From a virus, in the IMG/VR virus record IMGVR_UViG_3300037346_000623, positions 1-64,000 of that record: DNA of 64,000 nucleotides, one strand, 5' to 3'. The notes under the pieces were generated by a model. The model had not been told where the DNA came from. It worked only from the letters and a program-made list of their open reading frames with translations, and did not search any database. Shown piece by piece: positions 7,617 to 59,886 of this stretch (position 1 is the stretch's first letter; each line of letters begins with the position of its first letter). A program made the translations under genes and the position numbers.

Positions 7617-7645
7617 TTGTAGATTACATAATGGAGTTTTGTTTC
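7617..7645 (-). promoter_or_regulatory. Putative middle (ECF-type) promoter GAAAC-N19-TACAA
   Basis: One of 8 intergenic GAAAY-N17-19-TAHAA instances. Confidence 0.5.
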
Positions 7646-7656
7646 GTTATTTAGTG

Positions 7657-8619
7657 TTAATTTACTAAGGTTTCCTGAAATATTTTTCTTATCTTATCTT
7701 CGGGCATGAACGTGTTTACTATATTCTTAAGGTCCTTTAATTTTTTACCATCTTCAATCCTCAATTTCTTCATTTCAGAACTTAGATTCTGTTCATTACC
7801 AGATTTGTAGTTTTGAGAGGTTTGTTCGAAATGGTTATAGATATTATCCCTATCCACATTGTTATCAACGCCTAATGATTTCTTGAGTAGATAATAGAGT
7901 CTATGATTTTTCTTAACATCAGACAGATCAGATTCATCCTCAAGGTTAGGTAGATCGTCATTATAAAAATAAAAATTATGCTTACCGTTTTTACTCTTTA
8001 TCTCAACAGAGGGAGAAGATTCAGCATTATTTTTATACATCTTAAATTCACCGAGAAGCTGTTTATCTGATCTTTTATTTACATCTATTGAAATGTTATT
8101 ATCCAATACAACCGAATATTCATTATCTCCATCCAGCTTCTTAACATCAACAACCTCACAGGGAATCCCAATTATATCCATAATGTGATATACATCCTCC
8201 CTTATGGTATCTACTATATCTCCCGAATATAATTTATCTCTCATCTTGCTATCATAAAGGGATTCTATAAAATCCTCAACTTTAGCTCTATTGCTATCAG
8301 AACTTAGCCATTCGCCATCTCCTGAAATAGAAATTTTGCATGAAGAATCTGAATCATCACTAATCTTACAATGATCTTTGGGAATCCATAAATCGTTCAT
8401 TTTTCTACCTTTATAATTATGGAATGAAAGTCTAATATTTTTCGGGGAATCTTTCGTTAATAGGATTTTTCCGAATGGAGGTGTGTCATTTTCTGAATTA
8501 AATTTTTCAGCTTCCAATTCATATCCATTATCAGATAGTGAATTAATACCAGGAATTTCCTCATATATTTGTAAACTTTCCTCGTTTAAGATAAAATCTT
8601 TGAAATTTAAAATCTTCAT
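7657..8619 (-). CDS. Hypothetical protein with capsid-targeting-like N-terminus (putative internal head protein)
   Basis: Starts MKILNFKDFILNE, similar to the T4 internal-protein CTS MKTYQEFIAE. Confidence 0.65.
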   Translation of the reverse strand: MKILNFKDFILNEESLQIYEEIPGINSLSDNGYELEAEKFNSENDTPPFGKILLTKDSPKNIRLSFHNYKGRKMNDLWIPKDHCKISDDSDSSCKISISGDGEWLSSDSNRAKVEDFIESLYDSKMRDKLYSGDIVDTIREDVYHIMDIIGIPCEVVDVKKLDGDNEYSVVLDNNISIDVNKRSDKQLLGEFKMYKNNAESSPSVEIKSKNGKHNFYFYNDDLPNLEDESDLSDVKKNHRLYYLLKKSLGVDNNVDRDNIYNHFEQTSQNYKSGNEQNLSSEMKKLRIEDGKKLKDLKNIVNTFMPEDKIRKIFQETLVN

Positions 8620-8629
8620 ATAATATCAA

Positions 8630-9076
8630 TTATGATCCGAAGACCACAGTTATTTTAAAATTTCTTGCCTCCGTTGATTTATTCATATCAATTTCAACAG
8701 ATTTAGGATATGATGGTATAAGAACATCATTCTTATCTATTAATATTTGATTATAGTCTATGGTTCTACCCGGTATTAGATCTATATCAAATTCCTTCGA
8801 ATCGTTTGGATAATCATCAACTTCGAAATCAAGTTCCATTGAATTAACAACTATATCCATGCTATCTATACCTGATTTTTTTATAATTAAATTAACCGAA
8901 TAGTCCATAAAAATCTTAGCATCGGAAATATCCTCATATTCTTCAGGCCTGTTCTGTATATCTATATCAGTATATCCAAGTTCTATTCCGAAAGTATAAT
9001 CATTTGTATTGGTTGGCTTTTTACTATCAGTAAAAGCAGAATAATCATAAATTCTTCCCTCGTTTATTCTTTTCAT
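8630..9076 (-). CDS. Hypothetical late protein, start probably MKRINE at 9076
   Basis: The GATATATA motif at 9096-9103 lies inside the track's longer start (9106), which favours the downstream ATG. Confidence 0.65.
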   Translation of the reverse strand: MKRINEGRIYDYSAFTDSKKPTNTNDYTFGIELGYTDIDIQNRPEEYEDISDAKIFMDYSVNLIIKKSGIDSMDIVVNSMELDFEVDDYPNDSKEFDIDLIPGRTIDYNQILIDKNDVLIPSYPKSVEIDMNKSTEARNFKITVVFGS

Positions 9077-9095
9077 TTCTAGAAATCTTTTAGTG

Positions 9096-9134
9096 TATAT
9101 ATCCATTTCGAAAAAATTACAATGTAAATATATA
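9096..9134. promoter_or_regulatory. Divergent pair of putative late promoters (GATATATA minus 9096-9103, AATATATA plus 9127-9134)
   Basis: One motif precedes each of the two divergent genes. Confidence 0.55.
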
Positions 9135-9161: not shown

Positions 9162-9887
9162 ATGAAAAACCTAAGCACAATTTGGTTCATTAAAGAACCA
9201 ATAGACATAGAGCATAAAGAATATGTTCTTTTGGATTACTTAAAATCAATAAGTAAAAATATAAATTCAAAAAATTGCTATCCCATATTACGGGCAGTTT
9301 CCAAAATAGTTAAATCTCTTAATGAGTTTAAGAAAAATAACAAAATAGGGACAGTAATAATTTCACAGTTATCCGACGAGGAAAAGGAATACATAGAAAA
9401 TTTCAATTTTATAAATTTAGAAAAACAAAAAAAGGATCTGATATTAGAAATAATAGAATCATCTCTAGAAATACTATACGAATATTCCGAAATATTTTTA
9501 GATATGCTCAAGGAAGAGGAATCAAAAATTAAAATATTCAAGGTACAGTCAAAATTCAATTCAGAGAAGACAGAACCAATAAATTCTGGTATATTAATAA
9601 TAAGAAATATGGTAACAGATAAAATAATACCATATTATTGGCAGGGTTCGGTTACACTAAAGACAGATCAAGGAAATAAGCAGATTTGTGTACTCAAGAA
9701 AATAATTTTAAAAAATACAAGATATTCAATGAATTATGAATTCATATATCACGAAATATTAGATGAATTCTCGATAGAAAAAAACGTATCTCCTGAACTT
9801 TTTGTTATTGAAATATACGAGGACTTTGATGAAGATTCTGACATATATAAATTAGCAAAAGAAAAATTCATAGAAACAATCACATAA
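9162..9887 (+). CDS. Hypothetical protein (only credible plus-strand gene)
   Basis: 241-aa ORF filling a gap between minus-strand genes and ending at a bidirectional terminator. Confidence 0.85.
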   Translation: MKNLSTIWFIKEPIDIEHKEYVLLDYLKSISKNINSKNCYPILRAVSKIVKSLNEFKKNNKIGTVIISQLSDEEKEYIENFNFINLEKQKKDLILEIIESSLEILYEYSEIFLDMLKEEESKIKIFKVQSKFNSEKTEPINSGILIIRNMVTDKIIPYYWQGSVTLKTDQGNKQICVLKKIILKNTRYSMNYEFIYHEILDEFSIEKNVSPELFVIEIYEDFDEDSDIYKLAKEKFIETIT

Positions 9888-10976: not shown

Positions 10977-12383
10977 TTATGCTTTAGATAGAAATAGATC
11001 CACAGCTTTTTGTCTGTATGCTAATTTATCCTCTTTTATTTCGGGGTTCTTTAATGCCTCTTTTTTTCTATTAACTATTGAGCTAGGAAGCATAGGTCCG
11101 AATGTGTCCTTAAGTATCTTTTTATCAGTCCTCCATTCCAATGGTAAATGCATAGCAAATCTAATTATATCATTATTAAGAAATGGGGATCTTAGCTCAA
11201 GTGTATGTGCCATTGACATCTTATCCAATCTTGGCAGGTGATAAAAACTAAGCTCTTGGAAAATATCAGATTTCTGGGAATCGTATTCATGTATTCTTGA
11301 ATATCCACCAAATAACTCATCAGATCCATCCCCACTTATTACTATTCTATAATCAGTATTTTTACGGATAGTTTCAAATAAATGATACTGTGGAATAACA
11401 GATCCAAGATCTATTGGTGATTCGTTCCATTTGGCGTATATAAGAGCATTTTTTTCCAAATCCATATCATAGTCTAGGAAATTTGTAGAAGTTCCTAAAT
11501 GAGCTTCTAAATCATTAACAAAGGGGGTTTCACCATTCTCTATACTAAACCATTTAACATCAGATCCAGATTCCTTAAGTATCGCAGCAATTATAGCAGA
11601 ATCAAGTCCACCAGAAACTAGTATCGATATTGGATAATTTCTAGAAACCAATCTATTATTAACACTTTCAAACATCTTATCCCATAACCAATCCTTATGG
11701 GTTTCGTAATCCTCATCAACAAGTTCGGGTATCGGTGTGTCCCATATTCTATAATATTCAGGATAAGATTGTTCAAACATAGGAGAACCCATATTCCATG
11801 AATATATTGTATTTGGAAGTAATCTTTTTATATTGGCATATGCAGTTCTATTATCTGTATTATAACCAAACTTTCTGACAGAGCTTATGAACTTATCATC
11901 AATCTTTGAATTGTCCGTATATAATCCTTTTATTTCTGAGCATACCTCCCCAAGCTCGTTCTTATATAGGCATTTCTTACCAAGCGGATCAGTAAACGCT
12001 ATTACTTGACTTGTTACAGTACTATACAAAACTATCGACCAGAATCCATCCCATGTACAAATATGGGGAATGTACATTGCTGAGAAGAATTCCAAATTGG
12101 TCCCTCCTAATTTAGAAAAAAGATTACATAGATATTCAGTATCAGAAGAAAATAAATTCTGATCATAATTAAATATCTCACCGTTGAACATCATATAGAT
12201 ATCCTTAGCGACATTAATCGGTTGTCCCCAATCATCACCATCCAATGTTTGGATTGGTAATCTATGATGACATAGAGTTACATTATCAAAGGTCTCGCTT
12301 TGAACCTCTATTCCCCTATGTTTTATTGAATCCAGTATTTCAGGATTTGTCTTAGCACCAGTTGTTAGTAATATACCGCACAT
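10977..12383 (-). CDS. asnB: Asparagine synthetase B-like glutamine amidotransferase
   Basis: N-terminal MCGI, HRG, FNGEIFNY, PP-loop SGGLDS, SGDGSDELFGGY, DKMSMAHTLELRSPFL. Confidence 0.9.
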   Translation of the reverse strand: MCGILLTTGAKTNPEILDSIKHRGIEVQSETFDNVTLCHHRLPIQTLDGDDWGQPINVAKDIYMMFNGEIFNYDQNLFSSDTEYLCNLFSKLGGTNLEFFSAMYIPHICTWDGFWSIVLYSTVTSQVIAFTDPLGKKCLYKNELGEVCSEIKGLYTDNSKIDDKFISSVRKFGYNTDNRTAYANIKRLLPNTIYSWNMGSPMFEQSYPEYYRIWDTPIPELVDEDYETHKDWLWDKMFESVNNRLVSRNYPISILVSGGLDSAIIAAILKESGSDVKWFSIENGETPFVNDLEAHLGTSTNFLDYDMDLEKNALIYAKWNESPIDLGSVIPQYHLFETIRKNTDYRIVISGDGSDELFGGYSRIHEYDSQKSDIFQELSFYHLPRLDKMSMAHTLELRSPFLNNDIIRFAMHLPLEWRTDKKILKDTFGPMLPSSIVNRKKEALKNPEIKEDKLAYRQKAVDLFLSKA

Positions 12384-12385
12384 AA

Positions 12386-12943
12386 TTATATTTGATTTAT
12401 TAGTTTTATTAATTCATCTACGCTTTCATCAGTGAATTCATTCTGAAATATTCTTATATTATCAAACCCAAGTTCCACGAACTTATAAATAACAAATTCA
12501 AACGAGGATCTCTCAGAATTATCAAGCTCTGCATAATCCCATTGGTCCTTATTTCTATCGGATTTATCCGGGTTATTACCGTTTATATAGATCACCCTAA
12601 TTTCAGACATAAGGTTTTTATCCCTTATGAATTCTATTTGTTTTATGACGTCATCCCTTGTTATTCTATTTTCGGATAATCCCCATGCGAGAACAGTCAA
12701 TATACCTCTATCATGTATGAAATCCGGGATTGTTCCTTTTAGATCCTTAGCTATCTGCATTATCATAAGTTCCTTCCCCATCGAGAATGAATGTGCTTCT
12801 CTGTTATCATTGCTTTTCAATTCAAGTAAATTGAAATAGCTACCAAAATCAAACTGAAATCTAGGAAGATTCAATTTAGATTTCATTTCTTTGGAAAGAT
12901 ATGTCTTTCCTGAATTTCTAGGTCCTTCGAATACGTATATCAT
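12386..12943 (-). CDS. Thymidylate kinase-like P-loop nucleotide kinase
   Basis: VFEGPRNSGKT Walker A and IHDRG motif. Confidence 0.75.
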   Translation of the reverse strand: MIYVFEGPRNSGKTYLSKEMKSKLNLPRFQFDFGSYFNLLELKSNDNREAHSFSMGKELMIMQIAKDLKGTIPDFIHDRGILTVLAWGLSENRITRDDVIKQIEFIRDKNLMSEIRVIYINGNNPDKSDRNKDQWDYAELDNSERSSFEFVIYKFVELGFDNIRIFQNEFTDESVDELIKLINQI

Positions 12944-12948: not shown

Positions 12949-12976
12949 TTATAGATGTGGGAAATAATTTAATTTC
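12949..12976 (-). promoter_or_regulatory. Putative middle promoter GAAAT-N18-TATAA
   Basis: Lies between an upstream terminator and the kinase-asnB pair. Confidence 0.55.
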
Positions 12977-16750: not shown

Positions 16751-17905
16751 TTATTTATTTATTTTTTGTTTTAGCTTATCTATGATACCTGTTGTCAATA
16801 TACCAGATTTACCTATACCTACTGTTGAAAATGCATCTCTAAATGCTTTTAATACATCGCCTTTTATTTGTTTAGCATTACCTGCACCTTTATTGATCTT
16901 ATCTATGGCATCCTTAAATTCTTTATTATTACCAAGGGATTTCTCAATTTCAGCTGCATTACTACCAAGATTTCTAAAAGTTGAAAGAAGTTCCTTTTTA
17001 TAATCAAGAGCAGTTGCCATTTCTATAAGATCAAGCTTGGCATTTTCTAAGTATCTTTCAGTTAGTGGCTTAGTGGATTTCTTTATCTTATTGGAAATTT
17101 GATTTAGTTTTCTCTCCATATCAGATTTAATATCAGCTATTTCTTTTTCAAGCTCATTTTTTCTTTTAATTATATCCCCGCCTTTTCTTCTAGCTATAAT
17201 CTTCTTCTCCTTTTCTGTATCAAACGAAACCTCAGTTTTTACCTCATTAGGTTCCTTATCCCCTTCCTTCTTCATTTGTTCCTCTATCTCCTTAGCTTTA
17301 GCTTCTGCTTCTTCTCTGGCTTTAGTAACTTTCTCCTCATAGGATTTTAATGCTGTCTGATCCTCAGATCTTTCTTTTGCTAATCTGTATTCAAGCTCAG
17401 CCATTTCTATTTCATTCTCAGCATAACAAGAATCAAGATATTCCTTTCTCCTAGAATTTCCATTAACTATCTGCTTTGCAACATCCCTTGCTTTTTTAAG
17501 CTTAAGGTTCTGTGCTTTCTCGTATGCATCAAACTCATTGGTTTTAGCCTCCCTCTCCTTAGCTATTGCATCGATTTTTTCTTTATTACCTGCTTTTGCT
17601 AATTGATCTATCTGTTCATCGAATTTGGATAGGTTTTTTCTTAAATCACTAGCTTTCTGTATAAGATCAAGTTCCAGCGAAAGAACTATTCTTACCGCTT
17701 CGTCTATCATACCAACACCAGAAAATGATCCGAGAAGGAACTTGGAGAGTTTATTCGTTAAAAAATTGGCTATTCTTCCTTCGTTTATAGGAGATATTAT
17801 TTCTGGGATTTCGATTGATCTTAATTCTTTAAGAAATGCTGGGTCGAGATTCTCTATCAAACCTTCATATTGTTCAAAATCCTCAAAAGATGGAATACTT
17901 TTCAT
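16751..17905 (-). CDS. Coiled-coil putative internal head protein (start likely MKSIPSFEDF at 17905)
   Basis: CTS-like N-terminus. Late motif at 17928-17935. Confidence 0.7.
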   Translation of the reverse strand: MKSIPSFEDFEQYEGLIENLDPAFLKELRSIEIPEIISPINEGRIANFLTNKLSKFLLGSFSGVGMIDEAVRIVLSLELDLIQKASDLRKNLSKFDEQIDQLAKAGNKEKIDAIAKEREAKTNEFDAYEKAQNLKLKKARDVAKQIVNGNSRRKEYLDSCYAENEIEMAELEYRLAKERSEDQTALKSYEEKVTKAREEAEAKAKEIEEQMKKEGDKEPNEVKTEVSFDTEKEKKIIARRKGGDIIKRKNELEKEIADIKSDMERKLNQISNKIKKSTKPLTERYLENAKLDLIEMATALDYKKELLSTFRNLGSNAAEIEKSLGNNKEFKDAIDKINKGAGNAKQIKGDVLKAFRDAFSTVGIGKSGILTTGIIDKLKQKINK

Positions 17906-17927
17906 AAATTGATTTATTTTTATCATC

Positions 17928-17935
17928 TATATATC
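17928..17935 (-). promoter_or_regulatory. Putative late promoter GATATATA
   Basis: Heads the 17905-13050 operon. Confidence 0.6.
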
Positions 17936-19719: not shown

Positions 19720-19727
19720 TATATATC
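19720..19727 (-). promoter_or_regulatory. Putative late promoter GATATATA for the endonuclease gene
   Basis: Between the capsid terminator and the endonuclease ATG. Confidence 0.6.
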
Positions 19728-23537: not shown

Positions 23538-23545
23538 TATATATC
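23538..23545 (-). promoter_or_regulatory. Putative late promoter GATATATA for the protease-capsid operon
   Basis: Motif upstream of the gp21-like gene. Confidence 0.65.
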
Positions 23546-27198: not shown

Positions 27199-27235
27199 AA
27201 AAAAAGCTTTCCTCTATATATCAAAGGAAAGCTTT
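27199..27235 (-). promoter_or_regulatory. Terminator-like hairpin with a late promoter (27215-27222) in its loop, abutting the GTG start
   Basis: Minus strand AAAGCTTTCCT-TTGATATATAG-AGGAAAGCTTT-TTTT-GTG. Confidence 0.7.
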
Positions 27236-27966: not shown

Positions 27967-27974
27967 CAAATATA
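27967..27974 (-). promoter_or_regulatory. Bacteroidota-type -7 promoter element TATATTTG
   Basis: Matches TAnnTTTG, upstream of the exonuclease. Confidence 0.6.
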
Positions 27975-27998
27975 ATAAAAAAATTCGAATAAATAAAA

Positions 27999-28904
27999 TT
28001 ATTTCTTCGAAATTTTATTTATTACAGTCGGAGGAAGACCTCTATGTGATTTTAAATATTCAAGATAACAAAGTTCTCTATCCGGTGAATCTATTATAAC
28101 ATCAATGTCGAGTCCAAAAGTTGGGATTCTCATTGTTAATACACCAGTACAATTAGGTGAAAGAGCTTTACCGTTATTATCAGCGTCGGCTGCTTCTGAA
28201 TGGAAGAAAAAAGGTTTTGTACTTACTCTCCATGTTGAGGCTGCAAGAAACATAGCCTCCCTTATGGATAATCCGCCGTCGTTAAACTGATGTGGTAATA
28301 TTCTAAAACATAACGGTATTCCGGTTTCGTAATAAACACCAGATAATAGATCAGTTATCGAAAAAAGACTGGGCTTCTCGTCATTCATGACTGTTAATCT
28401 TTGCACTGTCGACTTTTTAAGTTTAGCCACCATTAAACAAAATTCCTTCATTGTTTTCTTTCTGTTTCCGTAAGCTGATCCTATTCTTATAACCATCGAA
28501 GGTCCATTCATACCAATTACACCAAGAACATCGGAGAGCTTATTAAGTAGCTTTATAGTTTTTATTCTAATATCCTCAAGTTGGCTACCAAGAAAATAAT
28601 CCTTACCTATAAAGATGATAACTCTCATCGAGTTTTTATTTATCAATGAATTTATATTATTGATTTTTTCGGAGAGAAGCGGATTCTCCTCCTCTATAAA
28701 ACCAGGCTCAAGGAAATCTGGGGTTATATCTAGCTCGCCAAGATTTAAGCAAACTATATTGGATGATATTTTAGAATTTATTATACATAAAGCCAAAATA
28801 AGATCGAGGATATCCTCATATGAGCATATCCTCTTATCTATTGTTATTGATTTCTTGGGAATACCAAGATACGATATATTTGTTTGATTGTGTCCGGATA
28901 TCAT
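27999..28904 (-). CDS. UV damage endonuclease (UvsE/UVDE)-like protein, divergent active site
   Basis: RLTVMNDEKPSLFS, A...A..TW...P.F.HSE layout. Several metal-ligand positions appear substituted. Confidence 0.7.
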   Translation of the reverse strand: MISGHNQTNISYLGIPKKSITIDKRICSYEDILDLILALCIINSKISSNIVCLNLGELDITPDFLEPGFIEEENPLLSEKINNINSLINKNSMRVIIFIGKDYFLGSQLEDIRIKTIKLLNKLSDVLGVIGMNGPSMVIRIGSAYGNRKKTMKEFCLMVAKLKKSTVQRLTVMNDEKPSLFSITDLLSGVYYETGIPLCFRILPHQFNDGGLSIREAMFLAASTWRVSTKPFFFHSEAADADNNGKALSPNCTGVLTMRIPTFGLDIDVIIDSPDRELCYLEYLKSHRGLPPTVINKISKK

Positions 28905-28920: not shown

Positions 28921-28948
28921 TTGTACTATAAATGATTGAATTGGTTTC
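28921..28948 (-). promoter_or_regulatory. Putative middle promoter GAAAC-N18-TACAA
   Basis: Recurrent motif. Confidence 0.55.
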
Positions 28949-31599: not shown

Positions 31600-31627
31600 T
31601 TATATTATACATACAATAGAATATTTC
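31600..31627 (-). promoter_or_regulatory. Putative middle promoter GAAAT-N18-TATAA
   Basis: Recurrent motif upstream of the rnh-like gene. Confidence 0.55.
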
Positions 31628-34498: not shown

Positions 34499-34506
34499 CA
34501 AAAGTA
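34499..34506 (-). promoter_or_regulatory. Bacteroidota-type -7 element TACTTTTG
   Basis: TAnnTTTG between a terminator and the ligase operon. Confidence 0.6.
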
Positions 34507-34539
34507 AATAAAATATACGTATTAAAAAAATAAAGTCAC

Positions 34540-37850: not shown

Positions 37851-37858
37851 TATATATC
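37851..37858 (-). promoter_or_regulatory. Putative late promoter GATATATA for the portal pair
   Basis: Recurrent motif. Confidence 0.65.
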
Positions 37859-38357: not shown

Positions 38358-38717
38358 CTAGATGTTATATGAATTGTCGTCACCTGTTATATAGCTAAAT
38401 GGGATCGTTACCGGATTTTTTGGCGGATGCAATTTCTTCCATCCCTTGGCAAATCCATGTTTAGCTATCTGTGTAAAATAAGCAAACGGATTATTAGATT
38501 TTTCTGGATTAAATCTATTCCAATATTTACATAAATCCTCCATAGCAAAAGCCATGCAATCCTCTCTATCCTCAGGATCCTTGTACGACATTTTCTTAGC
38601 TATTCCTTCAATCATAAGATTGAACATATCTATAGTTGCTGGCGTTAATTTTCCAGCATTCTTCGATTCAATAACAGCTGCCATTAGCTCGCTATTCTTT
38701 ACATAAACTTTTGCCAT
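38358..38717 (-). CDS. gp55: Short late-transcription sigma factor (T4 gp55-like)
   Basis: YVKNSEL, REDC, FNPEKSNNPFAYFTQIA. Confidence 0.75.
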   Translation of the reverse strand: MAKVYVKNSELMAAVIESKNAGKLTPATIDMFNLMIEGIAKKMSYKDPEDREDCMAFAMEDLCKYWNRFNPEKSNNPFAYFTQIAKHGFAKGWKKLHPPKNPVTIPFSYITGDDNSYNI

Positions 38718-38746: not shown

Positions 38747-38774
38747 TTTTAGTTATAAAATACTAAAAGATTTC
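38747..38774 (-). promoter_or_regulatory. Putative middle promoter GAAAT-N18-TAAAA driving the gp55-like gene
   Basis: Directly after the terminator at 38780-38814. Confidence 0.55.
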
Positions 38775-41560: not shown

Positions 41561-41601
41561 TATATATCCATACAAGGACAAGAAACTTTTTACTATATAT
41601 T
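41561..41601 (-). promoter_or_regulatory. Two tandem putative late promoters (GATATATA, AATATATA)
   Basis: Intergenic motif copies. Confidence 0.55.
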
Positions 41602-43676: not shown

Positions 43677-43706
43677 ATATTTAAAAGTTTATTTCTTATA
43701 TATCCG

Positions 43707-44296: not shown

Positions 44297-44343
44297 AATA
44301 TTATTTATATTTTATATTTTTAGTTTATTTTTATTTTTTGTTT

Positions 44344-45156
44344 CTATGCTAGATCAAAAATATCAAGATTATTGCATCTATTTTGATCTAAATATGCCCT
44401 TAGTGCATCCCTCATATCTTTTGCAGGGTATATTTTTGGTTCACTATCAGGTCCTATGTGACATAGAAATCCACTCTCAGTCTCTATACCAAGTTCATCC
44501 TCCAATATTAATCTATATAGAGATATCTGTATCGAGTATTCGTTATGATGATTTTCATAAAATGAATTAAACGGTCTAAGCAGCTTCTTATATCTCCCCT
44601 TAGGATGATTATCATCTTTAAATTCACCATTTGTCTTCCAATCACCAAGTATAAAAAGAACCTTATTTCTTTTAGAGTCCCAAAAGAGGAAAGGCTGATC
44701 TATTGTACCTGCCAATCTCCATTTTTTAGAAAAAATTCTAAGCTCGGATTTTAATGGTACAAGAGAATGAAATTTTCTATTATATAAATCCACGAATTTA
44801 TCAACTCTTGATCTGTATTCAGTTCCTTCTTCTGGTAATTCTGGATTCGATCCGCTCCAAAAATCTTCTATAAATTTATGAACCCTAGTTCCAAGATCAT
44901 TAGCAACATCCCCTTTATTCTTCCATTCATTCAATATGACCGATTGATCAACACCTTGATCTCTAGCTTTTCTTTTCGACCAATACTCTTTATCAAAGGG
45001 TGTCTTGAAATTCTTAAGGTATGTTGTAACTGAATCAAATTTTACACCTCTATACCTATATACATGGGTGGGTTCATCAAATTCAAAATTATTATCATCA
45101 AAAAATCTTAATTTTGAATTTATTTCATTTCTTGCTCTTTCTATGGATTCTACCAT
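44344..45156 (-). CDS. PD-(D/E)XK exonuclease (RecB/Cas4-like fold)
   Basis: SVTT, GTRVH, SE.RIF, LAGTID, DWKTN, YSIQISLY. Confidence 0.85.
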   Translation of the reverse strand: MVESIERARNEINSKLRFFDDNNFEFDEPTHVYRYRGVKFDSVTTYLKNFKTPFDKEYWSKRKARDQGVDQSVILNEWKNKGDVANDLGTRVHKFIEDFWSGSNPELPEEGTEYRSRVDKFVDLYNRKFHSLVPLKSELRIFSKKWRLAGTIDQPFLFWDSKRNKVLFILGDWKTNGEFKDDNHPKGRYKKLLRPFNSFYENHHNEYSIQISLYRLILEDELGIETESGFLCHIGPDSEPKIYPAKDMRDALRAYLDQNRCNNLDIFDLA

Positions 45157-45596
45157 ACAAAAGGAAATATATTAGATATCCATTCCCATTTATAGATTAT
45201 AAATGATATCAGTGAGATCTCAAAAATAAATCTAAATATCCAAAGCCAGCTAATTTCTCTAAATACAAACTGATAAACAACAAGATAAGATTCTTCATTA
45301 GTACCTTTAACTGGCTCTATCCAAACAGTCAGCAATTCCTCAAGATTTAATGATTTTAGATAATCATTTATCGGTTTTATCTCATTCAGAACAAAGGATG
45401 GCCTCGCTTCTTTCGGAAGATCATTCGACATCAAAACCTCTGGTGGTAAATTTATAACAGTGTACATTCTATTAAGATAATCTCTTCTTAGATTCTTTCT
45501 ACTCCATAGAGGAGAATTAAGCTCCTCTGATCTTATCTCTTTGGTATATTCTCTATAGAGAGATATCTCCTTCAGTACTCTCAGCAATTTAAACAT
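45150..45596 (-). CDS. Hypothetical protein with C-terminal membrane anchor
   Basis: Hydrophobic C-terminus. GAAAC-N17-TATAA at 45611-45637 lies upstream. Confidence 0.7.
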   Translation of the reverse strand: MFKLLRVLKEISLYREYTKEIRSEELNSPLWSRKNLRRDYLNRMYTVINLPPEVLMSNDLPKEARPSFVLNEIKPINDYLKSLNLEELLTVWIEPVKGTNEESYLVVYQFVFREISWLWIFRFIFEISLISFIIYKWEWISNIFPFVW

Positions 45597-45644
45597 AATA
45601 TTTTATTATTTTATACAGAAAAAAAAATCAAAGTTTCCCTAAAT

Positions 45645-46295
45645 CTATTTCTTGCATTTCTCCCTACCTCTACCAGTAATAACTTCAACCGCTTCAGCAC
45701 CAATATTTTTTGTTATTTTACTTCTTGCTCTTCTTATTCTTGTAGCAACTGATCTTTTCTTAAGACCATATTTCTCAGCAATATCCTTATACTTCATATT
45801 ATTGATTTCCCTATCAATCATTATATTCTTATATAAGTCGGGAAGTCCCTCAATTTCACCGATAACAGATTCATAGATTTCCTCAAACCTACTTGTTTCA
45901 TTAAAGAATGAATTAGACTGGTCCTCCTCCATACTATAAATACCACCAATATCACCAATCTCATTATTTGATGAAAAGAATTCCATTTCTAAGCTTGTTC
46001 TTGCGTTATATTTTTTTTCCTCCTTCATTAATAACAGGGTTTCATTCCTTGCTATATTATAACACCACGTAGAAAAATTACCTCTTTCCTCATTATATTG
46101 TTCTATTTTCTGCCATATCTTTGACATAGTATTAAGAAAGGCATCCTCAGCTAATGATGGATCTTTAACTATCAAGAAACAATGATTCAATATTCCAGGC
46201 TTTAATCTTTCGAACAAGTCTTTGAATGACTTATCAGTTCTACATCTTATAAATTCTGATGCCAATTTTTGTATATTTTTTTCCTTTCCTTGCAT
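45645..46295 (-). CDS. ECF-like sigma-70 family sigma factor
   Basis: Region 2 AEDAF...KIW.KI..Y....GNFSTWCYNIARN. Region 4 LPDLYK...MKYKDIAE......V.TRIRRAR. Confidence 0.9.
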   Translation of the reverse strand: MQGKEKNIQKLASEFIRCRTDKSFKDLFERLKPGILNHCFLIVKDPSLAEDAFLNTMSKIWQKIEQYNEERGNFSTWCYNIARNETLLLMKEEKKYNARTSLEMEFFSSNNEIGDIGGIYSMEEDQSNSFFNETSRFEEIYESVIGEIEGLPDLYKNIMIDREINNMKYKDIAEKYGLKKRSVATRIRRARSKITKNIGAEAVEVITGRGREKCKK

Positions 46296-46879: not shown

Positions 46880-46887
46880 CAAATATA
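46880..46887 (-). promoter_or_regulatory. Bacteroidota-type -7 element TATATTTG heading the dCMP deaminase-sigma operon
   Basis: TAnnTTTG match. Confidence 0.6.
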
Positions 46888-46929
46888 AATAAAAAATACG
46901 GGATAAAAAAATAATTTTAGAATTATTTT

Positions 46930-48372: not shown

Positions 48373-48402
48373 ATTTTTATTTTATTCTATATATTTTAAA
48401 AA

Positions 48403-49681: not shown

Positions 49682-49714
49682 ATATAATTAATTTTATTCT
49701 ATATAACACAACAC

Positions 49715-50352: not shown

Positions 50353-50907
50353 TTATAGGAATAAATCATCCCAATAATCAACAGCAAATACCATATCATC
50401 TATTTTGTATAGATCAGTACTGGTATAGTTTAGATTCATCGGTGATATAGGTTTAGTTGGGAACGTATCCTTACACGTTATTCTTCTATAAACATCACCA
50501 GCTTTATTAAAAACAGAAATGATTATAGTCCCAGTATAGTCATTTTTAAGACCCATAGCTCCAGTTAATGGGTTATAGATCAAATCCGACCATTGTCTTA
50601 ATGTTTTAAAAACATACATTGAATTTGCATCATTAAGATTGACACTAAAAGTTATACTAAGATCCATAAATGTATTCTCAGGTTTGGACCCTGCATAATT
50701 TCTTTTAGCAAATTTATATTTCTGCTGAACCGTACCTGGATTTTTATCCAAAGAAAGTCCGTTAATCTTACTTACGTGCTGTAATAGTATATTTCCTCCA
50801 GCTATAGCAGCAGGAGGTATTATTGTTACCTCGAATTGGTTTAAATAAACAGGTTCATACTTGTTTATCCCTGATAATGAATTTTGATAATGTGATAGTC
50901 CTGCCAT
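50353..50907 (-). CDS. gp19: Tail tube protein, copy A (gp19-like)
   Basis: Highly similar to its neighbour, with identical LRQWSDLIYNPLTGAMGLKNDY. Confidence 0.85.
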   Translation of the reverse strand: MAGLSHYQNSLSGINKYEPVYLNQFEVTIIPPAAIAGGNILLQHVSKINGLSLDKNPGTVQQKYKFAKRNYAGSKPENTFMDLSITFSVNLNDANSMYVFKTLRQWSDLIYNPLTGAMGLKNDYTGTIIISVFNKAGDVYRRITCKDTFPTKPISPMNLNYTSTDLYKIDDMVFAVDYWDDLFL

Positions 50908-50946
50908 AATTACTTATATTTATCTTTGTTAGCTAAAAGATTCAAA

Positions 50947-53900: not shown

Positions 53901-54294
53901 AGTATAATTCACTAGTAACCACACCATTATATTCCTCAGTATCCACAGAGAATGATCTATATGTAACCTTATCAGGGTCCGCTGATTCGAGATTATCGTT
54001 CAGTTTTAAGAGATTTAATGCAAATACTGGGCCTGCATTTAAACACGTTAATATTGATCTATGAAAGAAAGATCCTTTATTTTCGAGTGACGCGTCGATA
54101 TCACCAAAGATTGATATCATCGTTGTTGCATCAGGAATATAGACAGGTGTATTAAAAGGTCCTTTATTAGAGAAACCTATAACAAGTCTAATTGTTTGTG
54201 ATGTAAGTATGACGTTTTGTGATGCGTCAAATTCAAGCGTATAGACACCAGATGCTCTAAATTGAGAATAGTCTATTTTTACCTTATTTGCCAT
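50947..54294 (-). CDS. gp18: Contractile tail sheath protein (gp18-like) with a large insertion
   Basis: SGVYTLEFD, GFSNKGPFNTP, VPPAAYV, AGQKRG, INPI, GNQT, VHVRDLLI, FDFN. Confidence 0.93.
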   Translation of the reverse strand: MANKVKIDYSQFRASGVYTLEFDASQNVILTSQTIRLVIGFSNKGPFNTPVYIPDATTMISIFGDIDASLENKGSFFHRSILTCLNAGPVFALNLLKLNDNLESADPDKVTYRSFSVDTEEYNGVVTSELYSSYYNKERFWFADPNYFLATLSIPDQGKLLNVTNLGKSPMSIIVRKSTDSSSPLLGYNIFAIDWYGANNVPTFMHPYDYISDYFIDVIAVYGNWTNYQALNLDPMWSTYFSNNGFIKSKIDQFLANPNVSIVTSVTGCIIPDFVDLNGVNQYIQTLINNNTASTGLFCAIDEQAFDDICNNPSKIDLVGNHLIDELSGDRDLANPRINFLSYDQALEADYLYTQNVVGITGATGFVSPAGITGFTSGSKVGTLFTITGSTAGVYQGSFVPYDSNAYDTGMHYLLTSAATGSTGGMLQNAGQRAALKSFLNVSSSNDEKFILGVVSGVAGLTGSLVSQFNEADIVKLKVTGTKDVNGQLLIWWTHPLDNAQYRSQGITVKPTYNLSTYNTGASGSNKPYYNDSYQFGDSDYFDIISLVTMDGATGPFAPNGYTDSIVAYNTSAFFQNHKYLEIEDGDSIWITSTGTPNQQYIGFENTIDRDQFNLTYARAYSQQASMNTNTIVNIAAFGTSYASNNIGLPVSPQKIDIISQIGSINDFIECTQIDVTTFNINIVNGVSPLAVGDWVVSTDLDICEPATGNRQSRLTKVKSVAQTGTYGVLKVVTARPVLYYSNSGSSLRVQKFKSIAQFTNSFDFTFLNGFIMKERHRPNGTDARLQEILAVLYDTNIAKTLASKDVISFRYIVDTFSGIIGPESKWEFSKLAKMRQQALAIINAPSMAQFRASTDPSFTDAPTASNPYPPLNTSYIVEGGNLSLNPTYTFSLPNEEDGSKFCAFYSPYIVVRNGNKNINVPPAAYVSNNFIRKFANGEPYAIVAGQKRGILSGGNIVGVEYDFTDEDRANLEPFGINPILKRRGIGVVIFGNQTAYQQVNSAFNLVHVRDLLISIENDVQEILANYLFDFNEDSIRLEIKTLVDNYLDGVRSGGGIYAYQTIMDSSNNTPAIIDMNMGIIDVIIEPARGIHKFINRITVTKTGGIAAGGFMQFV

Positions 54295-54323: not shown

Positions 54324-54331
54324 TATATATC
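54324..54331 (-). promoter_or_regulatory. Putative late promoter GATATATA for the sheath-tube operon
   Basis: Recurrent motif. Confidence 0.65.
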
Positions 54332-54356: not shown

Positions 54357-56183
54357 CTACATTAGGTTATTGAATTCACTATATGATTTACCTTCCTTAG
54401 TTGAAGGTCCTTTCTTATCATCATCGAAAATTTGATCTCCCTCTAATTTTTTTATAATTAAATCCTTATACTCATTATCCTCCATCTCGTCGAATACCTC
54501 GCCAACCATATGATTAAAATCATATCCATCTAAAAGTCCGGGTAGATTGACTAATGTCATCGCAACATCATCGTGTCCACTTTGGCTAGAATACGTTCCT
54601 CTGTTATTAAGACCGAAAGTAAATAACTCAGGTATAGTCCATTTCTTTTCATTAACCAATATCTTGTTTTCTCTAACCAGGCTTCTGAGTAATTCACAAT
54701 ACTTCATCTTATTCTTTTCGTTGTATTTTATTCCAGGTTTTAAAGTTCTTGCGCTTTCCGAATGTTTAGTAAATAAAAACATTTCATCAAAAAATTCATC
54801 TCTAGATATTAATTTATCATAGAGGAGTTCACCCTTAAAATTCATCTCCAGAGCTATTTTTACACGATCCACAGTAAAAACATTCTCACACAAAACCTGT
54901 AATAGCTTAACTACATCCTCTAGCTTTATTTCATTATCTCTAAATACGCCAATCTGAATAAGCCCGAAGAAATCAGACTCGTCATCATATTCATCTATTT
55001 TTTCTATAACTACTTTTGGTAACGGAGTAACTCTAAATATATTTATTACAGTAAAATCCCCCTTTCCCCCACCGCTAAGATCTATTGATAAAACAAATTT
55101 CTTTCCCCTCTCGTTACACGTATCTATATCAAATTTAGGATGCCACCTGAAATTTTCATATGATATATTATGATTATGTAATTCACTTATTTCCCTCCAT
55201 TCATATTCAATCTCATTCTTCTTTATCTTTTTAAGTTCATCAGATCCCAATAATAAACTCGAAGAACTTAAAAACTGATTACCGTATTCTTGATTGAAAA
55301 GTTCCTCACTTCCCAGGTTACCTATTTCTTTTTGTTTCCATGCTTCATCCCTACCAGGAACTTGCCACCAGTCAACTCTAATAGGATTAAAACTATTATC
55401 ACCATCCATCGCACCCTGGTAGATATCATAGAATTTATTCATACCGTTAGGTGTTGATGTTATTATTATTCTAGAAACCTTGGACGAGGATACTGTAGGA
55501 TACGTGGATCTAAAGAATGCCTCCATGAAATTATCATTAATATGTGCAAACTCATCCATATATAAAAAATGTATAGTAAATCCGATACCTGATGATTTAG
55601 TTGTAGTTTTAGCTAAAACCCTACAGCCGTTATCAAAACGCATTGTCATTACATTATTGATTATCATACCAGGTTTAAGAAAAAATGGGAGGCCTTTTAT
55701 TATCGATTTTATTTTATCCATTAACTCTTCTGCAGTATCACCAACATTGGCTAATATCATTGCGTTCTTATCATGATTAAAGAGAAGATACCAAACAAGA
55801 ATTATTGAGGATGTTATAGATTTACCAACCTGTCTAGGCGCTAAAAATACATTAAATCTATTTGATTGATACTCTTTAAGTACTGATTCCTGATAATCTC
55901 TCAATTTTATATACTCAAGTCCAAAGTCTGTCATTACTTTGCAATATTTTGCAAAGTATGCTACATCTTCCGCACATTTTTTCATTTCAATAACCTCTTC
56001 CCTAGTATATTCCCATTGAAGACTAGGTTTTTTTAACTCAGGATCTTGCTCATAAAATGGATTATCAACATCCTTATAATCCAATCCTTCCTCGTCTATT
56101 CTTCTCAGAAGTTCATTAACTCTCTCAGTATTCCACAGGGATGTTTCTATCTGATCCTGCTTTTTGTGTATTATCTCTCCCAT
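54357..56183 (-). CDS. gp17: Terminase large subunit (T4 gp17-like)
   Basis: LRDYQ, PRQVGKS, YMDEFAH, ITSTPNG, FNQEY, IDLSGG..GDF, GHDDVAM. Confidence 0.95.
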   Translation of the reverse strand: MGEIIHKKQDQIETSLWNTERVNELLRRIDEEGLDYKDVDNPFYEQDPELKKPSLQWEYTREEVIEMKKCAEDVAYFAKYCKVMTDFGLEYIKLRDYQESVLKEYQSNRFNVFLAPRQVGKSITSSIILVWYLLFNHDKNAMILANVGDTAEELMDKIKSIIKGLPFFLKPGMIINNVMTMRFDNGCRVLAKTTTKSSGIGFTIHFLYMDEFAHINDNFMEAFFRSTYPTVSSSKVSRIIITSTPNGMNKFYDIYQGAMDGDNSFNPIRVDWWQVPGRDEAWKQKEIGNLGSEELFNQEYGNQFLSSSSLLLGSDELKKIKKNEIEYEWREISELHNHNISYENFRWHPKFDIDTCNERGKKFVLSIDLSGGGKGDFTVINIFRVTPLPKVVIEKIDEYDDESDFFGLIQIGVFRDNEIKLEDVVKLLQVLCENVFTVDRVKIALEMNFKGELLYDKLISRDEFFDEMFLFTKHSESARTLKPGIKYNEKNKMKYCELLRSLVRENKILVNEKKWTIPELFTFGLNNRGTYSSQSGHDDVAMTLVNLPGLLDGYDFNHMVGEVFDEMEDNEYKDLIIKKLEGDQIFDDDKKGPSTKEGKSYSEFNNLM

Positions 56184-56983: not shown

Positions 56984-59476
56984 TTATTTATTTCTTGCAA
57001 ATTTGGGTATATTTAGCAAAGGTTTAGCGTTATCTATTATATGTGCTAGCTGGGAATCTCTAACGATATTCTGATTAAGGACAGTTGACTGATTATCTAT
57101 ATCTATCATATTTTTAAATAATCTTACGTTACTGATGTGTATAGGACCAGTAAAAATCTTATATGAATTATTATCCGTACCATAATATGGACTGAATTTA
57201 TCAGTAACCATATTGGAAGGTGCATTAAAAACTATATGATCAGTAAACATTCTTGAATCCTCGTGTAATTTAGACAATTTACTAGATTGATCAGGAGAAC
57301 TATTTGTAGGATCATAAGTTATTCCCCATATTATTGAAGATATCTGCTTATATACATTAGAGAAATTTATAACAACACCGTACCATTCATCTATGGAAGG
57401 TATAAACTGTAGGGTAGTATTTATAATTAGATCATTAAATCTAACAACCAGACTTCCTGTTTCTAGGAAAATATTTGTTAATTCATCAGTTACACCTGAA
57501 TGTATAATATCGGCTCTGAATCCCTTAATATCTCCATTCTGATCCTCATATAATCCACTTATTAAATTTCTAGATTGTGCCTTTTGCATTCTCCATGTAA
57601 CAGGGCCAACCGAGAAATTCTCAGATTTATTAATAATCTTAAATTTATATTCATCTATAATACTAGCAACCTGATATCCGCCACTATGCGGGAGATCACC
57701 CTTTATTGCTACGTATCCCTCAGGATTAGTTTGATAGGTATCCCAACTTTCAAGATTATGTTTCCTTGGATATGAATTAAAAATAATAAAATCATTATCG
57801 TATGATTCCAGAGATATGTTTATAACTGGATATGGTCTTTTCATCAGCTGCTGATTATTATAAAGATTCTTTATATTAAACCATGCTGTAAATGCTAACT
57901 CTTCACCTATACTAATTTTCGGAAGTAACTTATAGCGGATAGCCTCCCTGTATTGCTTGGTTGCGTATATAAAATCGGAGTCATCCACAAATGATCCATA
58001 GAGATCATAATAGTCATTAAATACTATAGTCCAGTTATTATTAAGATCATATCCTATTATTGATAAATCTTTATAAACATATGATCTTATAGGATCCTGT
58101 GACATCTGTGTTATTGTAGTTGCATACTGCTGGGGGTTTGTTATTTTAAGTTCCTCGCTTTGTACTTCTGCTCCAAATAAATCACTAGTTGTAAGACTTA
58201 TACCATCAAGCTCCTCCTTATGTGCTGGGTCTCTAAAGTAAGTATTACTTTTAGGATTATATTTTTTAAGCTCAATTTTAAAATAAACAGGAGCGTTCAT
58301 AAAATCTCTAAATAGATAGGTTGAGTTTATTTCATAGATTCTATTTGTTATTGGAAAGTATATAATATCTCTTTTTCTTGGTTGCGATCCCTTACCGAAT
58401 ATTGACTCGAAATATCTTTTATCAATTTGAACCTCAAAAGGATCATCATAATTTAATCCAAAAGGATCAAAATTTATTTTATTATCAGGAAATTGGTTCT
58501 GATTAACCATTAATTTTACGCATTTTTCAGAAACAACATTAAATAAGGTATATTCTCTAAGGACAACATCTCTACCTCTAGCCTGGGGTTGAACTGAATA
58601 ATAATTAGCATCAAGACCAAACATCTTATTAACCATTAAGCTAAGGTCCTGATATATGTTCAGTGCTTTATTAACAGCATAAGGCTTGAATGTAAACCCG
58701 CAATCAGAAAAAACAACAGGTCGATTAGAGGTTTCTGGCGAACATATGGGGGATGGTCTGCTTTGTATCTTTTCTGGTATTGAACCAAAATCAAGATCCA
58801 AATCAAAGCTAACTATAACAACAGATGGATCTATAGGTTCATTAGTATTATAAATTATACCTCCGTCCGGACCTATAAGAACTGACGTGAATCTAAACTC
58901 AGGATAGAATTTATTAGATGGATCCAAATCAATCGAAAAAACATCAGAGAAATTATTGGTTAGTCCATTAAGGGCCGTACCAACATTCGTCCATAGAGAC
59001 CACGTTTTTCCGTCTATACTATATCTAAAATCTATTGATATATCATTAGCATCCAGGATTGATCCATTATTATTCGAATAAACAGTATCAATTATCCATC
59101 CATTGAATTTAGTAGCATTCTCGAAAGGTTTATCCCATGTTAATACCCTATAATTACCTATATAGGTGAAGTTTAAGGCACTTTCGAGCTGCTCCATTCT
59201 TAAACCATAATATTCAGGGGTTTCGCATGGCATATACATTGTATTACCGCTGACCATAATTTCATGAAATCCCCAGCAGCCTAATTGTTTAGCTCTAGCT
59301 CTCGCACCATTTTCAGTACTAAATATATTATCGACCGATGATTCGAGTACTTTATCGGTATTTTCAAGTCCATCATGATAAGCATATCTAGGATCCGATA
59401 TATCGTATTGTTCACCCTCAGTATTATATACAGGTGTACCGTTTTTTGGAAATCTATTCTCTGGATAAAAGCTCAT
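56984..59476 (-). CDS. Neck protein (gp14-like core) with extra N- and C-terminal domains
   Basis: MFGLDANYY, FGL, F...FG....P...DIIYFP..NRIYEI core. N-terminal ARA..LGC.GFH...YMPC motif and a beta-rich C-terminus. Late motif at 59496-59503. Confidence 0.6.
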   Translation of the reverse strand: MSFYPENRFPKNGTPVYNTEGEQYDISDPRYAYHDGLENTDKVLESSVDNIFSTENGARARAKQLGCWGFHEIMVSGNTMYMPCETPEYYGLRMEQLESALNFTYIGNYRVLTWDKPFENATKFNGWIIDTVYSNNNGSILDANDISIDFRYSIDGKTWSLWTNVGTALNGLTNNFSDVFSIDLDPSNKFYPEFRFTSVLIGPDGGIIYNTNEPIDPSVVIVSFDLDLDFGSIPEKIQSRPSPICSPETSNRPVVFSDCGFTFKPYAVNKALNIYQDLSLMVNKMFGLDANYYSVQPQARGRDVVLREYTLFNVVSEKCVKLMVNQNQFPDNKINFDPFGLNYDDPFEVQIDKRYFESIFGKGSQPRKRDIIYFPITNRIYEINSTYLFRDFMNAPVYFKIELKKYNPKSNTYFRDPAHKEELDGISLTTSDLFGAEVQSEELKITNPQQYATTITQMSQDPIRSYVYKDLSIIGYDLNNNWTIVFNDYYDLYGSFVDDSDFIYATKQYREAIRYKLLPKISIGEELAFTAWFNIKNLYNNQQLMKRPYPVINISLESYDNDFIIFNSYPRKHNLESWDTYQTNPEGYVAIKGDLPHSGGYQVASIIDEYKFKIINKSENFSVGPVTWRMQKAQSRNLISGLYEDQNGDIKGFRADIIHSGVTDELTNIFLETGSLVVRFNDLIINTTLQFIPSIDEWYGVVINFSNVYKQISSIIWGITYDPTNSSPDQSSKLSKLHEDSRMFTDHIVFNAPSNMVTDKFSPYYGTDNNSYKIFTGPIHISNVRLFKNMIDIDNQSTVLNQNIVRDSQLAHIIDNAKPLLNIPKFARNK

Positions 59477-59524
59477 TTCTATTTATACTTTTTCTTATAT
59501 ATCAAAAAATCCTAGACTATAAAC

Positions 59525-59556
59525 AAAAAAAAAGGATCCAATAGGATCCTCTTTTT
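59525..59556 (-). terminator. Intrinsic terminator
   Basis: A-tract-aggatcc-aata-ggatcct-cT5. Confidence 0.8.
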
Positions 59557-59569
59557 AATATTACTAAAA

Positions 59570-59842
59570 TTAAGATTTGGTATAGATCCCGCTAACAAGA
59601 TCTAATTTACCATCGCCATGTTCTCCAACAACCTTAGCTTGTAGTTCTTCCTCCCTGATATTTATTCTGCTGGCCTCATTATAGAGATGCTCAAGCTCCT
59701 GCTCCATCATGGACAAATCTTTTTTATAAAAAGAAACCTGAACGTTTAACCTTCCTATTTTTACAACATTCTCAGTAAGTTCATCCTTCAATGTTTGAAC
59801 CTCTAATAATAGCTCATCGCTTAATTTAATTTCCTGACTCAT
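59570..59842 (-). CDS. Small coiled-coil hypothetical protein
   Basis: 90 aa, with its own GAAAC-N18-TATAA promoter (59857-59884) and terminator. Confidence 0.75.
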   Translation of the reverse strand: MSQEIKLSDELLLEVQTLKDELTENVVKIGRLNVQVSFYKKDLSMMEQELEHLYNEASRINIREEELQAKVVGEHGDGKLDLVSGIYTKS

Positions 59843-59886
59843 TTTAATTTTTTAATTTATACTAATAATAGTAATTATTGTTTCAT

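Follow-up and report, generated by a model that had tools for sequence, protein, structure and literature searches.

The cascade of phage SPO1 runs from the host sigmaA to gp28 and then to gp33/gp34. In phage T4, late transcription is carried out with gp55, gp33 and the gp45 sliding clamp, and the late box is TATAAATA. The cited passages describe that SPO1 switches from sigmaA to phage sigma factors (PMC13401047) and that a T4 late promoter is one -10-type box of 8 bp which lacks a -35 element (PMC2988020). For the Salmonella phage 7-11 it is described as experimentally shown that the sigma24-like gp47 reads GTAAtg-16-aCTA (PMC8948821). The Group 2 (T4-like) jumbo phages are reported to encode 'minimal' and 'RpoD-like' sigma factors (Iyer et al. 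2021, PMC7824862), and one huge phage is reported to encode its own sigma70 while targeting that of the host (PMC7162821). Phage sigma cascades such as that of SPO1, the gp55-dependent late transcription of T4 and phage sigma factors like those of the extracytoplasmic function (ECF) type are already known. Here we analysed the promoters and sigma factor genes of a viral contig, IMG/VR record IMGVR_UViG_3300037346_000623 (G000, 117,265 bp, rated 41% complete), in a stretch of 64,000 nucleotides (nt) that comprises its bases 1-64000 and is called the window. It was compared with relatives including the complete 434-kb genome G002 and the divergent 319-kb genome G005; the complete relatives span 319-434 kb.

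Three classes of promoter motifs were found in the intergenic DNA, and they are real and conserved. The original prediction, made from the letters of the window, had joined them into a relay that leads from the host sigma factor to an ECF-like phage sigma factor and from there to a gp55-like factor. We infer the readers, the timing and the start sites from the sequence, and consider such a three-class relay rather probable. Class (a) promoters would be early, read by the RNA polymerase holoenzyme of the host when infection begins, and would drive small early genes, the tRNA array, part of the replication genes and the genes of an ECF-like and a sigmaA-like sigma factor. Class (b), a two-box promoter of ECF-type geometry, would be middle, read by the phage ECF-like sigma factor, and would drive recombination, repair and nucleotide genes and the gp55-like gene. 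Class (c) would be late, read by the gp55-like factor that consists of region 2 only, and would drive the head, neck, tail and packaging operons. The motif classes and their wiring to the sigma genes were found to be conserved, which upholds this part of the prediction. The chain as drawn was too simple: a third phage sigma factor is present, at least two phage sigma factors would be early-expressed, and the reading of class (b) by the ECF-like factor is not the sole possible assignment.

The sigma factor genes and the gene adjacent to that of the ECF-like factor are the following (aa, amino acids; ORF, open reading frame).

45645..46295, minus strand: ECF-like sigma factor of 216 aa that has only regions 2 and 4; starts 4 nt past the dCMP deaminase gene
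45150..45596, minus strand: protein of 148 aa with a hydrophobic C-terminus, immediately after the ECF-like sigma gene
38358..38717, minus strand: gp55-like minimal late sigma factor of 119 aa with region 2 as its sole sigma region; matched phrog_234 ('late sigma transcription factor') at 1.8e-14
G000 108239-109141 (outside the window), plus strand: sigmaA-like third sigma factor, 300 aa, a sigma-region-2 ORF

The ECF-like factor matched Sigma70_r2 (8.7e-11) and Sigma70_r4_2 (1.3e-9) of Pfam and passed the NCBIfam model TIGR02937 for sigma70-ECF with 63.8 bits (cut-off 42.9). It stayed below the cut-offs of the narrower models Sig70_bacteroi1 and SigW. In six genomes its regions 2 and 4.2 (recognition helix) were invariant at an overall identity of 63-88%. 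The 148-aa protein follows the ECF-like factor in all six genomes, with 63-82% identity and a strongly hydrophobic C-terminus, and this membrane protein is a candidate anti-sigma factor.

The sole PDB match of the gp55-like protein was T4 gp55 (7d7c_F, E=0.0022, residues 5-100), and tblastn showed 37-38% identity to late sigma factors annotated in cyanophages. Within its 119 residues, compared with 185 in T4 gp55, Sigma70_r2 alone was detected, even at E up to 1, and no region 4. At least 174 relatives of the protein were found in one viral collection, on contigs of up to 434 kb.

The sigmaA-like factor aligned end to end with RpoS/RpoD structures and is full-length, with regions 1.2 to 4. Its nearest cellular kin is the ~287-aa primary sigma factor of Bacteroidota (Saprospiraceae, Hymenobacter, Flavobacteriales, Bacteroidales and others), with which it shares the N-terminus MRQ(L/I)K and the absence of region 1.1. 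The phage clade has FISFAVWHIRKQI in place of the FISYAVWWIRQSI of Bacteroidota sigmaA, and LTGESVRI in place of LTRERVRQ, at positions that we take to be those of the DNA-contact residues of E. coli sigma70. The contact positions of region 4.2 vary among G000, G002, G003, G004 and G005. All five complete relatives carry exactly these three sigma types. Two further phages were too distant to inform: Chryseobacterium phage MA9V-2 has gp55 and one other sigma factor and no GAAAC box before gp55, and in LR756500 there are five sigma-region-2 ORFs, again with no box that is clear.

As bare patterns the motifs are common in the window, where the ORFs lie nearly all on the minus strand. TAnnTTTG occurs 85 times (39 plus, 46 minus), the class (b) pattern 26 times (5 plus, 21 minus) and RATATATA, the pattern of class (c), 27 times (2 plus, 25 minus). 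Position and context therefore matter, and the enrichment was tested on sense-strand intergenic DNA. For G000 this comprised 101 intergenic stretches with 12,046 nt and 300 dinucleotide-preserving shuffles. The observed numbers are given against the shuffle mean.

G000: TAnnTTTG 16 against 7.9 +/- 2.8, reached by 2/300 shuffles and weak alone
G000: TAnnTTTGC 10 against 1.1 (0/300)
G000: class (b) 15 against 1.8 +/- 1.3 (0/300)
G000: RATATATA 26 against 4.6 (0/300)
G000: GATATATA 17 against 1.0
G000: T4 TATAAATA 5 against 3.8, not enriched
G002: TAnnTTTG 56 against 17.7; TAnnTTTGC 44 against 2.7; class (b) 17 against 3.2
G002: RATATATA 72 against 8.7; GATATATA 58 against 1.7; T4 TATAAATA 6 against 7.2
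G005: TAnnTTTG 38 against 13.9; TAnnTTTGC 15 against 1.3; class (b) 21 against 4.4
G005: RATATATA 59 against 10.9; GATATATA 38 against 2.2; T4 TATAAATA 21 against 9.7

The comparison with shuffled background had been proposed with the original prediction, and all three classes were enriched in G000, G002 and G005. An unbiased 7-mer scan had GAAACAA, GATATAT and TATTTGC among its top words. When the intergenic gaps of at least 20 nt in the window were inspected, 25 of 28 had a sense-strand motif of one class or another, and one of the other three is a convergent terminator. The motifs stand once per operon and not before each gene. Terminator-like hairpins, of which 21 are intergenic in the contig, were found within 90 nt upstream of 11 of the 50 predicted promoter sites. 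A fourth promoter class was not found by dyad enumeration in 266 upstream regions of G002, nor in 192 with class (a) masked; classes (a), (b) and (c) alone were recovered. One pattern match at 19728, absent from the original prediction, was rejected as a promoter; it is a terminator hairpin.

Class (a) had been placed at 27967, 34499 and 46880, and TAnnTTTG is indeed present at the three positions on the minus (coding) strand.

27967..27999, minus strand: class (a) promoter (T-run, CG, TATATTTGCA), 14 nt upstream of the 3'-5' exonuclease gene 27254-27952
34499..34538, minus strand: class (a) promoter (TTTTTTTAATACGTAT..TACTTTTG) at the head of the DNA ligase, clamp loader and guanylate kinase unit (33138-34475 onward), with a terminator just upstream
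46880..46919, minus strand: class (a) promoter, heads the operon of dCMP deaminase (46300-46857) and the ECF-like sigma factor; kept in relatives

The likeness of these sites extends well beyond TAnnTTTG. From 16 sites in G000 the consensus a.aTtATTTTtTTatt.CGaAa...Ttt..TAtaTTTGCA was obtained, or in short ATTTTTTTAT..CG..(N11)..TAtaTTTGCA. The sites have TA..TTTG, with the last G in 14/16 and a following CA in 14/16. A C is found at about -25 in 14/16 and a G at about -24 in 15/16. The -7 element lies 14-30 nt upstream of the starts of protein genes. It equals the published consensus of the Bacteroidota primary sigma factor, given as TTTG/TAnnTTTG in the cited passage (PMC6847099), and the claim that TAnnTTTG is this -7 element thus holds. 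The phage promoters are like those of the sigmaABfr type in having this element at the right distance from the genes, and unlike them in the -33 region, where the TTTG is replaced in most phage copies by the T-run ATTTTTTTAT and by the CG at about -25/-24, which is invariant or nearly so. In a second subtype, seen in G002, TTATCGTTG stands at about -33 and the leader is GTAATTAAAAC; this subtype heads a cluster of about 14 small ORFs. TTG at about -33 was found only in this small-ORF-cluster subtype, and the contig end of G000 (115.7-117 kb) has the same promoter type. Just upstream of the small-ORF-cluster promoters there are AACTTTAACG-like boxes (G000 115676-117265; G002 181-193 kb).

At all eight positions given for class (b), GAAAY-N17-19-TAHAA was found on the minus (coding) strand.

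7617..7645, minus strand: GAAAC-N19-TACAAT, before 6894-7547 and the NUDIX gene 6317-6901
12949..12976, minus strand: GAAAT-N18-TATAAT, behind a terminator and upstream of 12386-12943 and of the Asn-synthase-like gene 10977-12383
28921..28948, minus strand: GAAAC-N18-TACAAA, before the UvdE-like endonuclease gene 27999-28904
31600..31627, minus strand: GAAAT-N18-TATAAC, before the 5'-3' exonuclease gene 30412-31566
38747..38774, minus strand: GAAAT-N18-TAAAAT, directly before the gp55-like gene, just past a terminator
44318..44344, minus strand: GAAAC-N17-TAAAAA, before 43766-44296 (176 aa)
45611..45637, minus strand: GAAAC-N17-TATAAA, right after the ECF-like sigma gene, upstream of 45150-45596 and of the exonuclease gene 44344-45156
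59857..59884, minus strand: GAAAC-N18-TATAAA, before the 90-aa gene 59570-59842

In 11 sites GAAAC/T is followed after 17-19 nt (mode 18) by T A n A A. The extended form is (T/C)GAAAY-N17-19-(G/C)TAnAA, with C or G often before the TA. No base is conserved at position 6 of the -10 box (A in 6, T in 4 and C in 1 of the 11 sites). Class (b) had been described as preceding nucleotide, replication and non-structural genes. This largely applies to G000, where the class precedes nucleases, a recombinase, NUDIX and gp55 and its gene set is largely separate from that of class (c). The slot in the programme is the same as in the T4 middle mode, i.e. replication, recombination and nucleotide genes together with the late-sigma gene. 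The promoters differ from those of T4 in that they are without the host -7 element, and therefore a new sigma factor is implied rather than a remodelled host sigma factor. The original prediction also had the MotA/AsiA middle mode replaced. This is weakly supported by the search for AsiA and the MotA C-terminal domain (PF09010, PF09158), which had no positive control and gave no match in G000, G002 and G005.

Class (c) consists of a T-rich stretch followed by gATATATA(G/A). Of the intergenic sites, 24 lie no more than 60 nt before a start codon, and for 19 the distance is 14-33 nt; in these 24 no conserved upstream box was found save the T-richness. Class (c) is like the T4 late promoters a single -10-type box without a -35 element, it stands before virion genes, and the genome encodes a gp55-homologous sigma factor of region 2 only.

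9127..9134, plus strand: AATATATA, 27 nt before 9162-9887, the sole plus-strand gene in the window gene set
17928..17935, minus strand: GATATATA, before 16751-17926 and large genes further downstream
19720..19727, minus strand: GATATATA, after a terminator, before 17959-19698
23538..23545, minus strand: GATATATA, before the prohead protease and gp23 genes
27215..27222, minus strand: GATATATA, before 26383-27198 and the 925-aa gene 23583-26360
37851..37858, minus strand: GATATATA, before the two portal paralogs
41561..41568, minus strand: GATATATA, before the 853-aa gene 38978-41539; second copy at 41594-41601
43697..43704, minus strand: GATATATA, after a terminator, before 43431-43676 and three genes downstream
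48388..48395, minus strand: AATATATA, before 46930-48372 (weak tape-measure-like match)
49700..49707, minus strand: variant GTTATATA, after a terminator, before 48569-49681
54324..54331, minus strand: GATATATA, before the sheath and tube genes
59496..59503, minus strand: GATATATA, after a terminator, before the neck protein and large terminase genes
61968..61975, minus strand: AATATATA, before the genes of a PKD-domain protein (60944-61951) and a gp15-like sheath stabiliser (60192-60938)

Class (c) thus precedes the capsid, protease, portal, sheath, neck and terminase genes and heads every recognisable structural operon, as had been predicted. Upstream of the portal gene it was found in 41/41 unique relatives. 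The gap 50908-50946 before the tail-tube gene has no GATATATA and contains GATAAATA, which is nearer to the T4 late box and is kept in G002. RNA data came from metatranscriptome contigs that belong to relatives (shares of 0.14 and 0.05). In two studies alike, contigs stop at 41554, which is 7 nt downstream of the GATATATA copy at 41561-41568, and among the contig ends listed there is no loose end at 41554. This is a weak hint that transcription starts near 41554. The other contig ends lie inside genes or run through promoters and are uninformative on class (a) and class (b) starts.

The wiring of the sigma genes was compared in the relatives. Class (a) heads the operon with dCMP deaminase first and the ECF-like sigma factor second in 4/4 genomes with a readable intergenic region, in agreement with the original prediction, and the sigmaA-like gene lies behind a class (a) promoter in 5/6 genomes. 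Class (b) had been noted directly before the gp55-like gene; there, both boxes are kept while the spacer drifts in 35/45 unique relatives (1.1 in shuffles), and three more unique relatives have TAAAAC as the -10 box. Each sigma gene lies, by its position in the sequence, behind a promoter of the preceding class. Since gp55 lies behind class (b), the activity of class (c) would depend on that of class (b). The arrangement is like that of SPO1 in that the host primary sigma factor would read the early genes, an early gene encodes the sigma factor of the next class and that class encodes the late factor. It is unlike SPO1 in that the sigma factors are unrelated (here ECF-like, sigmaA-like and gp55-like), the host would be a member of the Bacteroidota with TAnnTTTG, structure and replication are T4-like, and there are two early phage sigma factors instead of one.

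Classes (b) and (c) are without TTTG, so a non-host specificity is needed. For class (b) the ECF-like sigma factor is the favoured reader on several grounds. The -35 box GAAAC contains the AAC that is found in ECF promoters and its 18-nt distance corresponds to ECF geometry, and the -10 box has no conserved last T; the variable position 6 argues against a primary-sigma-type TATAAT (T at -7). Regions 2 and 4.2 of the ECF-like factor are invariant, like the boxes, whereas region 4.2 of the sigmaA-like factor varies in the same genomes. In addition, the phage sigma24-like gp47 of 7-11 reads a similar two-box promoter, and E. coli sigmaE reads GGAACTT / GTC (PMC6648896). Like phiEco32 gp36 and 7-11 gp47, the ECF-like factor would be a small phage sigma factor that redirects the host core polymerase, and the form of the gp47 promoter resembles GAAAC-N17-19-TAnAA. 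Unlike here, phiEco32 and 7-11 are ~77-kb enterobacterial podoviruses with one phage sigma factor for the late genes, whereas the ECF-like factor would be an intermediate tier that feeds gp55.

Several observations weigh against the relay as described. The third phage sigma factor has no promoter class of its own; it either shares class (a), or reads class (b), or has promoters too few to detect. Upstream of the ECF-like sigma gene the only promoter is the class (a) site that heads the operon, in front of dCMP deaminase; a class (b) site is absent there and the sigma gene is not autoregulated, whereas cellular ECF systems usually are autoregulated and have an anti-sigma factor. The 148-aa protein had no family match in searches that included PHROGs and Pfam, and is a mere candidate for the anti-sigma factor. 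Cellular kin of the ECF-like factor matched at E <= 1e-10 in 16 of 201 sampled genomes (class of G006); all were 23-33% identical and no GAAAC box was seen upstream of them, so that no specificity can be transferred from these relatives. The original prediction had likened class (c) to the -10-only promoters of T4 gp55. The single box without a -35 element fits, but the box is gATATATA(G/A) and not TATAAATA, for which there was no enrichment in G000. A gp45-type clamp (PF09116) had no match in G000, G002 and G005, where divergent homologues may be missed, and gp33 was not found among the window ORFs in PHROGs and PDB searches, the contig being 41% complete. Upstream of the portal gene a class (c) and a class (b) site stand in tandem, ~10 nt apart, in 34/41 unique relatives, which contradicts a strict assignment of class (b) to non-structural genes; 'middle = non-structural' is too simple. 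The RNA evidence consists of contig ends only, from relatives that are 90-95% alike.

Class (b) could instead be read by the phage sigmaA-like factor and not by the ECF-like one, which we regard as unlikely. The ECF-like factor would then control few promoters or answer a signal, e.g. via the adjacent membrane protein. The sigmaA-like factor is full-length, early-expressed by its class (a) position and kept in 5/5 complete relatives, its substitutions at DNA-recognition positions imply a new specificity, and no other promoter class is left over for it. The class (b) -10 box is often like the canonical TATAAT (TACAAT, TATAAT, TAAAAT), but its last position is not conserved. GAAAY is invariant across the clade though the region 4.2 contacts of the sigmaA-like factor vary, the recognition helix of the ECF-like factor is invariant, and GAAAC with the 18-nt distance has ECF geometry. 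In another reading classes (b) and (c) are not successive tiers, in that both would act in the replication and late period, or class (b) would be a continuous 'boost', with no timed relay. The tandem promoters of the portal gene and the class (b) sites at 59857 and 44318 within the structural region speak for this, whereas the largely separate gene sets within G000 and the position of gp55 behind class (b) in most relatives make it improbable.

It is very hard to maintain that the motifs are not promoters but AT-rich bias, translation signals or RNA-processing sites. The genome is AT-rich (31-35% GC), bare TAnnTTTG is only ~2-fold enriched, and A/T-rich leaders are expected in Bacteroidota since they have no Shine-Dalgarno sites. 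The motifs were, however, 8- to 17-fold above the dinucleotide shuffles with a strong sense-strand bias, they stand one per operon and some directly after a terminator. In addition, the spacer drifts while the two boxes stay conserved, and class (a) matches the host promoter consensus exactly.

An extended form of the relay is put forward tentatively, in which four tiers with three phage sigma factors in serial substitution replace the MotA/AsiA appropriation. The host sigmaA would fire a few immediate-early promoters with TTG at -33 (the small-ORF cluster with the GTAATTAAAAC leader) and give basal expression elsewhere. The phage copy of sigmaA, with the -7 head kept and region 4.2 rebuilt, would then take over the ATTTTTTTAT..CG..TAnnTTTGCA promoters, and the early and tRNA transcription would become independent of the host sigma factor or dominant over it. 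In the third step the ECF-like factor, possibly gated by the adjacent membrane protein, would fire GAAAC-N18-TAnAA, and in the fourth gp55 would fire GATATATA. This arrangement would be conserved over a large clade of 320-434-kb aquatic Bacteroidota phages. A co-variation of region 4.2 of the sigmaA-like factor with the upstream box of class (a) was tried and rejected: G002 and G005 share an identical ATTTTTTTATC box despite their differing region 4.2, which supports neither side.

Like the Group 2 jumbo phages, the phage group studied here has a minimal gp55-type and a fuller RpoD-like sigma factor. The cited passages on Group 2 contain no promoter classes, no ECF-like third sigma factor and no sigma-to-promoter wiring, and in the literature searched (supplementary files aside) neither promoter classes nor a sigma relay were described for this phage group. 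What appears to be new here is that an ECF-like tier and a copy of the host primary sigma factor stand where T4 uses MotA/AsiA, and that GATATATA serves as the late box.

The window comes from a huge T4-like myovirus of Bacteroidota and represents the part of its genome for structure and replication. A T4-type virion module was identified with PHROGs and Pfam.

19811-21535, minus strand: gp23 major capsid protein (PHROGs/Pfam)
21553-23523, minus strand: prohead protease (PHROGs/Pfam)
50353-50907: tail-tube gene (PHROGs/Pfam module)
50947-54294, minus strand: tail sheath (PHROGs), with tube protein genes in the same operon
54357-56183, minus strand: large terminase (PHROGs/Pfam)
56984-59476, minus strand: neck protein (PHROGs/Pfam)

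Interspersed with the virion genes are replication, repair and nucleotide genes for ligase, clamp loader, exonucleases, UvdE-like endonuclease, dCMP deaminase and guanylate kinase. The nearest named relatives by the capsid protein are the Lak megaphages and the LR7565xx huge phages with ~43% identity, and megablast gave no near-identical phage records. The portal protein gp20 is encoded by two tandem paralogs, 34571-36211 and 36216-37829 (Portal_T4 1e-66 and 1.4e-56), that share one class (c) promoter. Past the stop of the 853-aa gene (38978-41539), ~53 further codons are open in another frame (38718-38980); they end in an acidic tail like the C-terminus of the orthologue of the 853-aa protein in relatives. 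Either a programmed frameshift or an error of the assembly may account for this.

Outside the window, a gene for a Lon-like ATP-dependent protease (G000 79046-81139, phrog_4871 8.8e-246) has a class (a) promoter directly in front of it, at 81165. The tRNA array comprises 27 genes (G000 86999-102713), one with the anticodon tta that would read the UAA stop; the window ORFs are intact under the standard bacterial code. A 35-bp unit is repeated 4.2 times with 100% identity at G000 68204-68350, in a 386-nt gap upstream of a UvsX-like gene, and these repeats could be iterons or an origin. A direct repeat of ~100 bp is found at the contig end (G000 116863-117060).

To our knowledge, huge Bacteroidota phages are known almost solely from metagenomes and their gene regulation is unstudied. 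The three conserved promoter classes give a ready temporal annotation for hundreds of genes in the clade that are annotated without a function. Bacteroidota genetics would gain orthogonal parts in the three small sigma factors and their promoters. The finding also raises the question of what the phage gains from a modified copy of the host primary sigma factor. In evolutionary terms it offers an alternative to T4, in which the same slots seem to be filled by sigma replacement and not by sigma remodelling.

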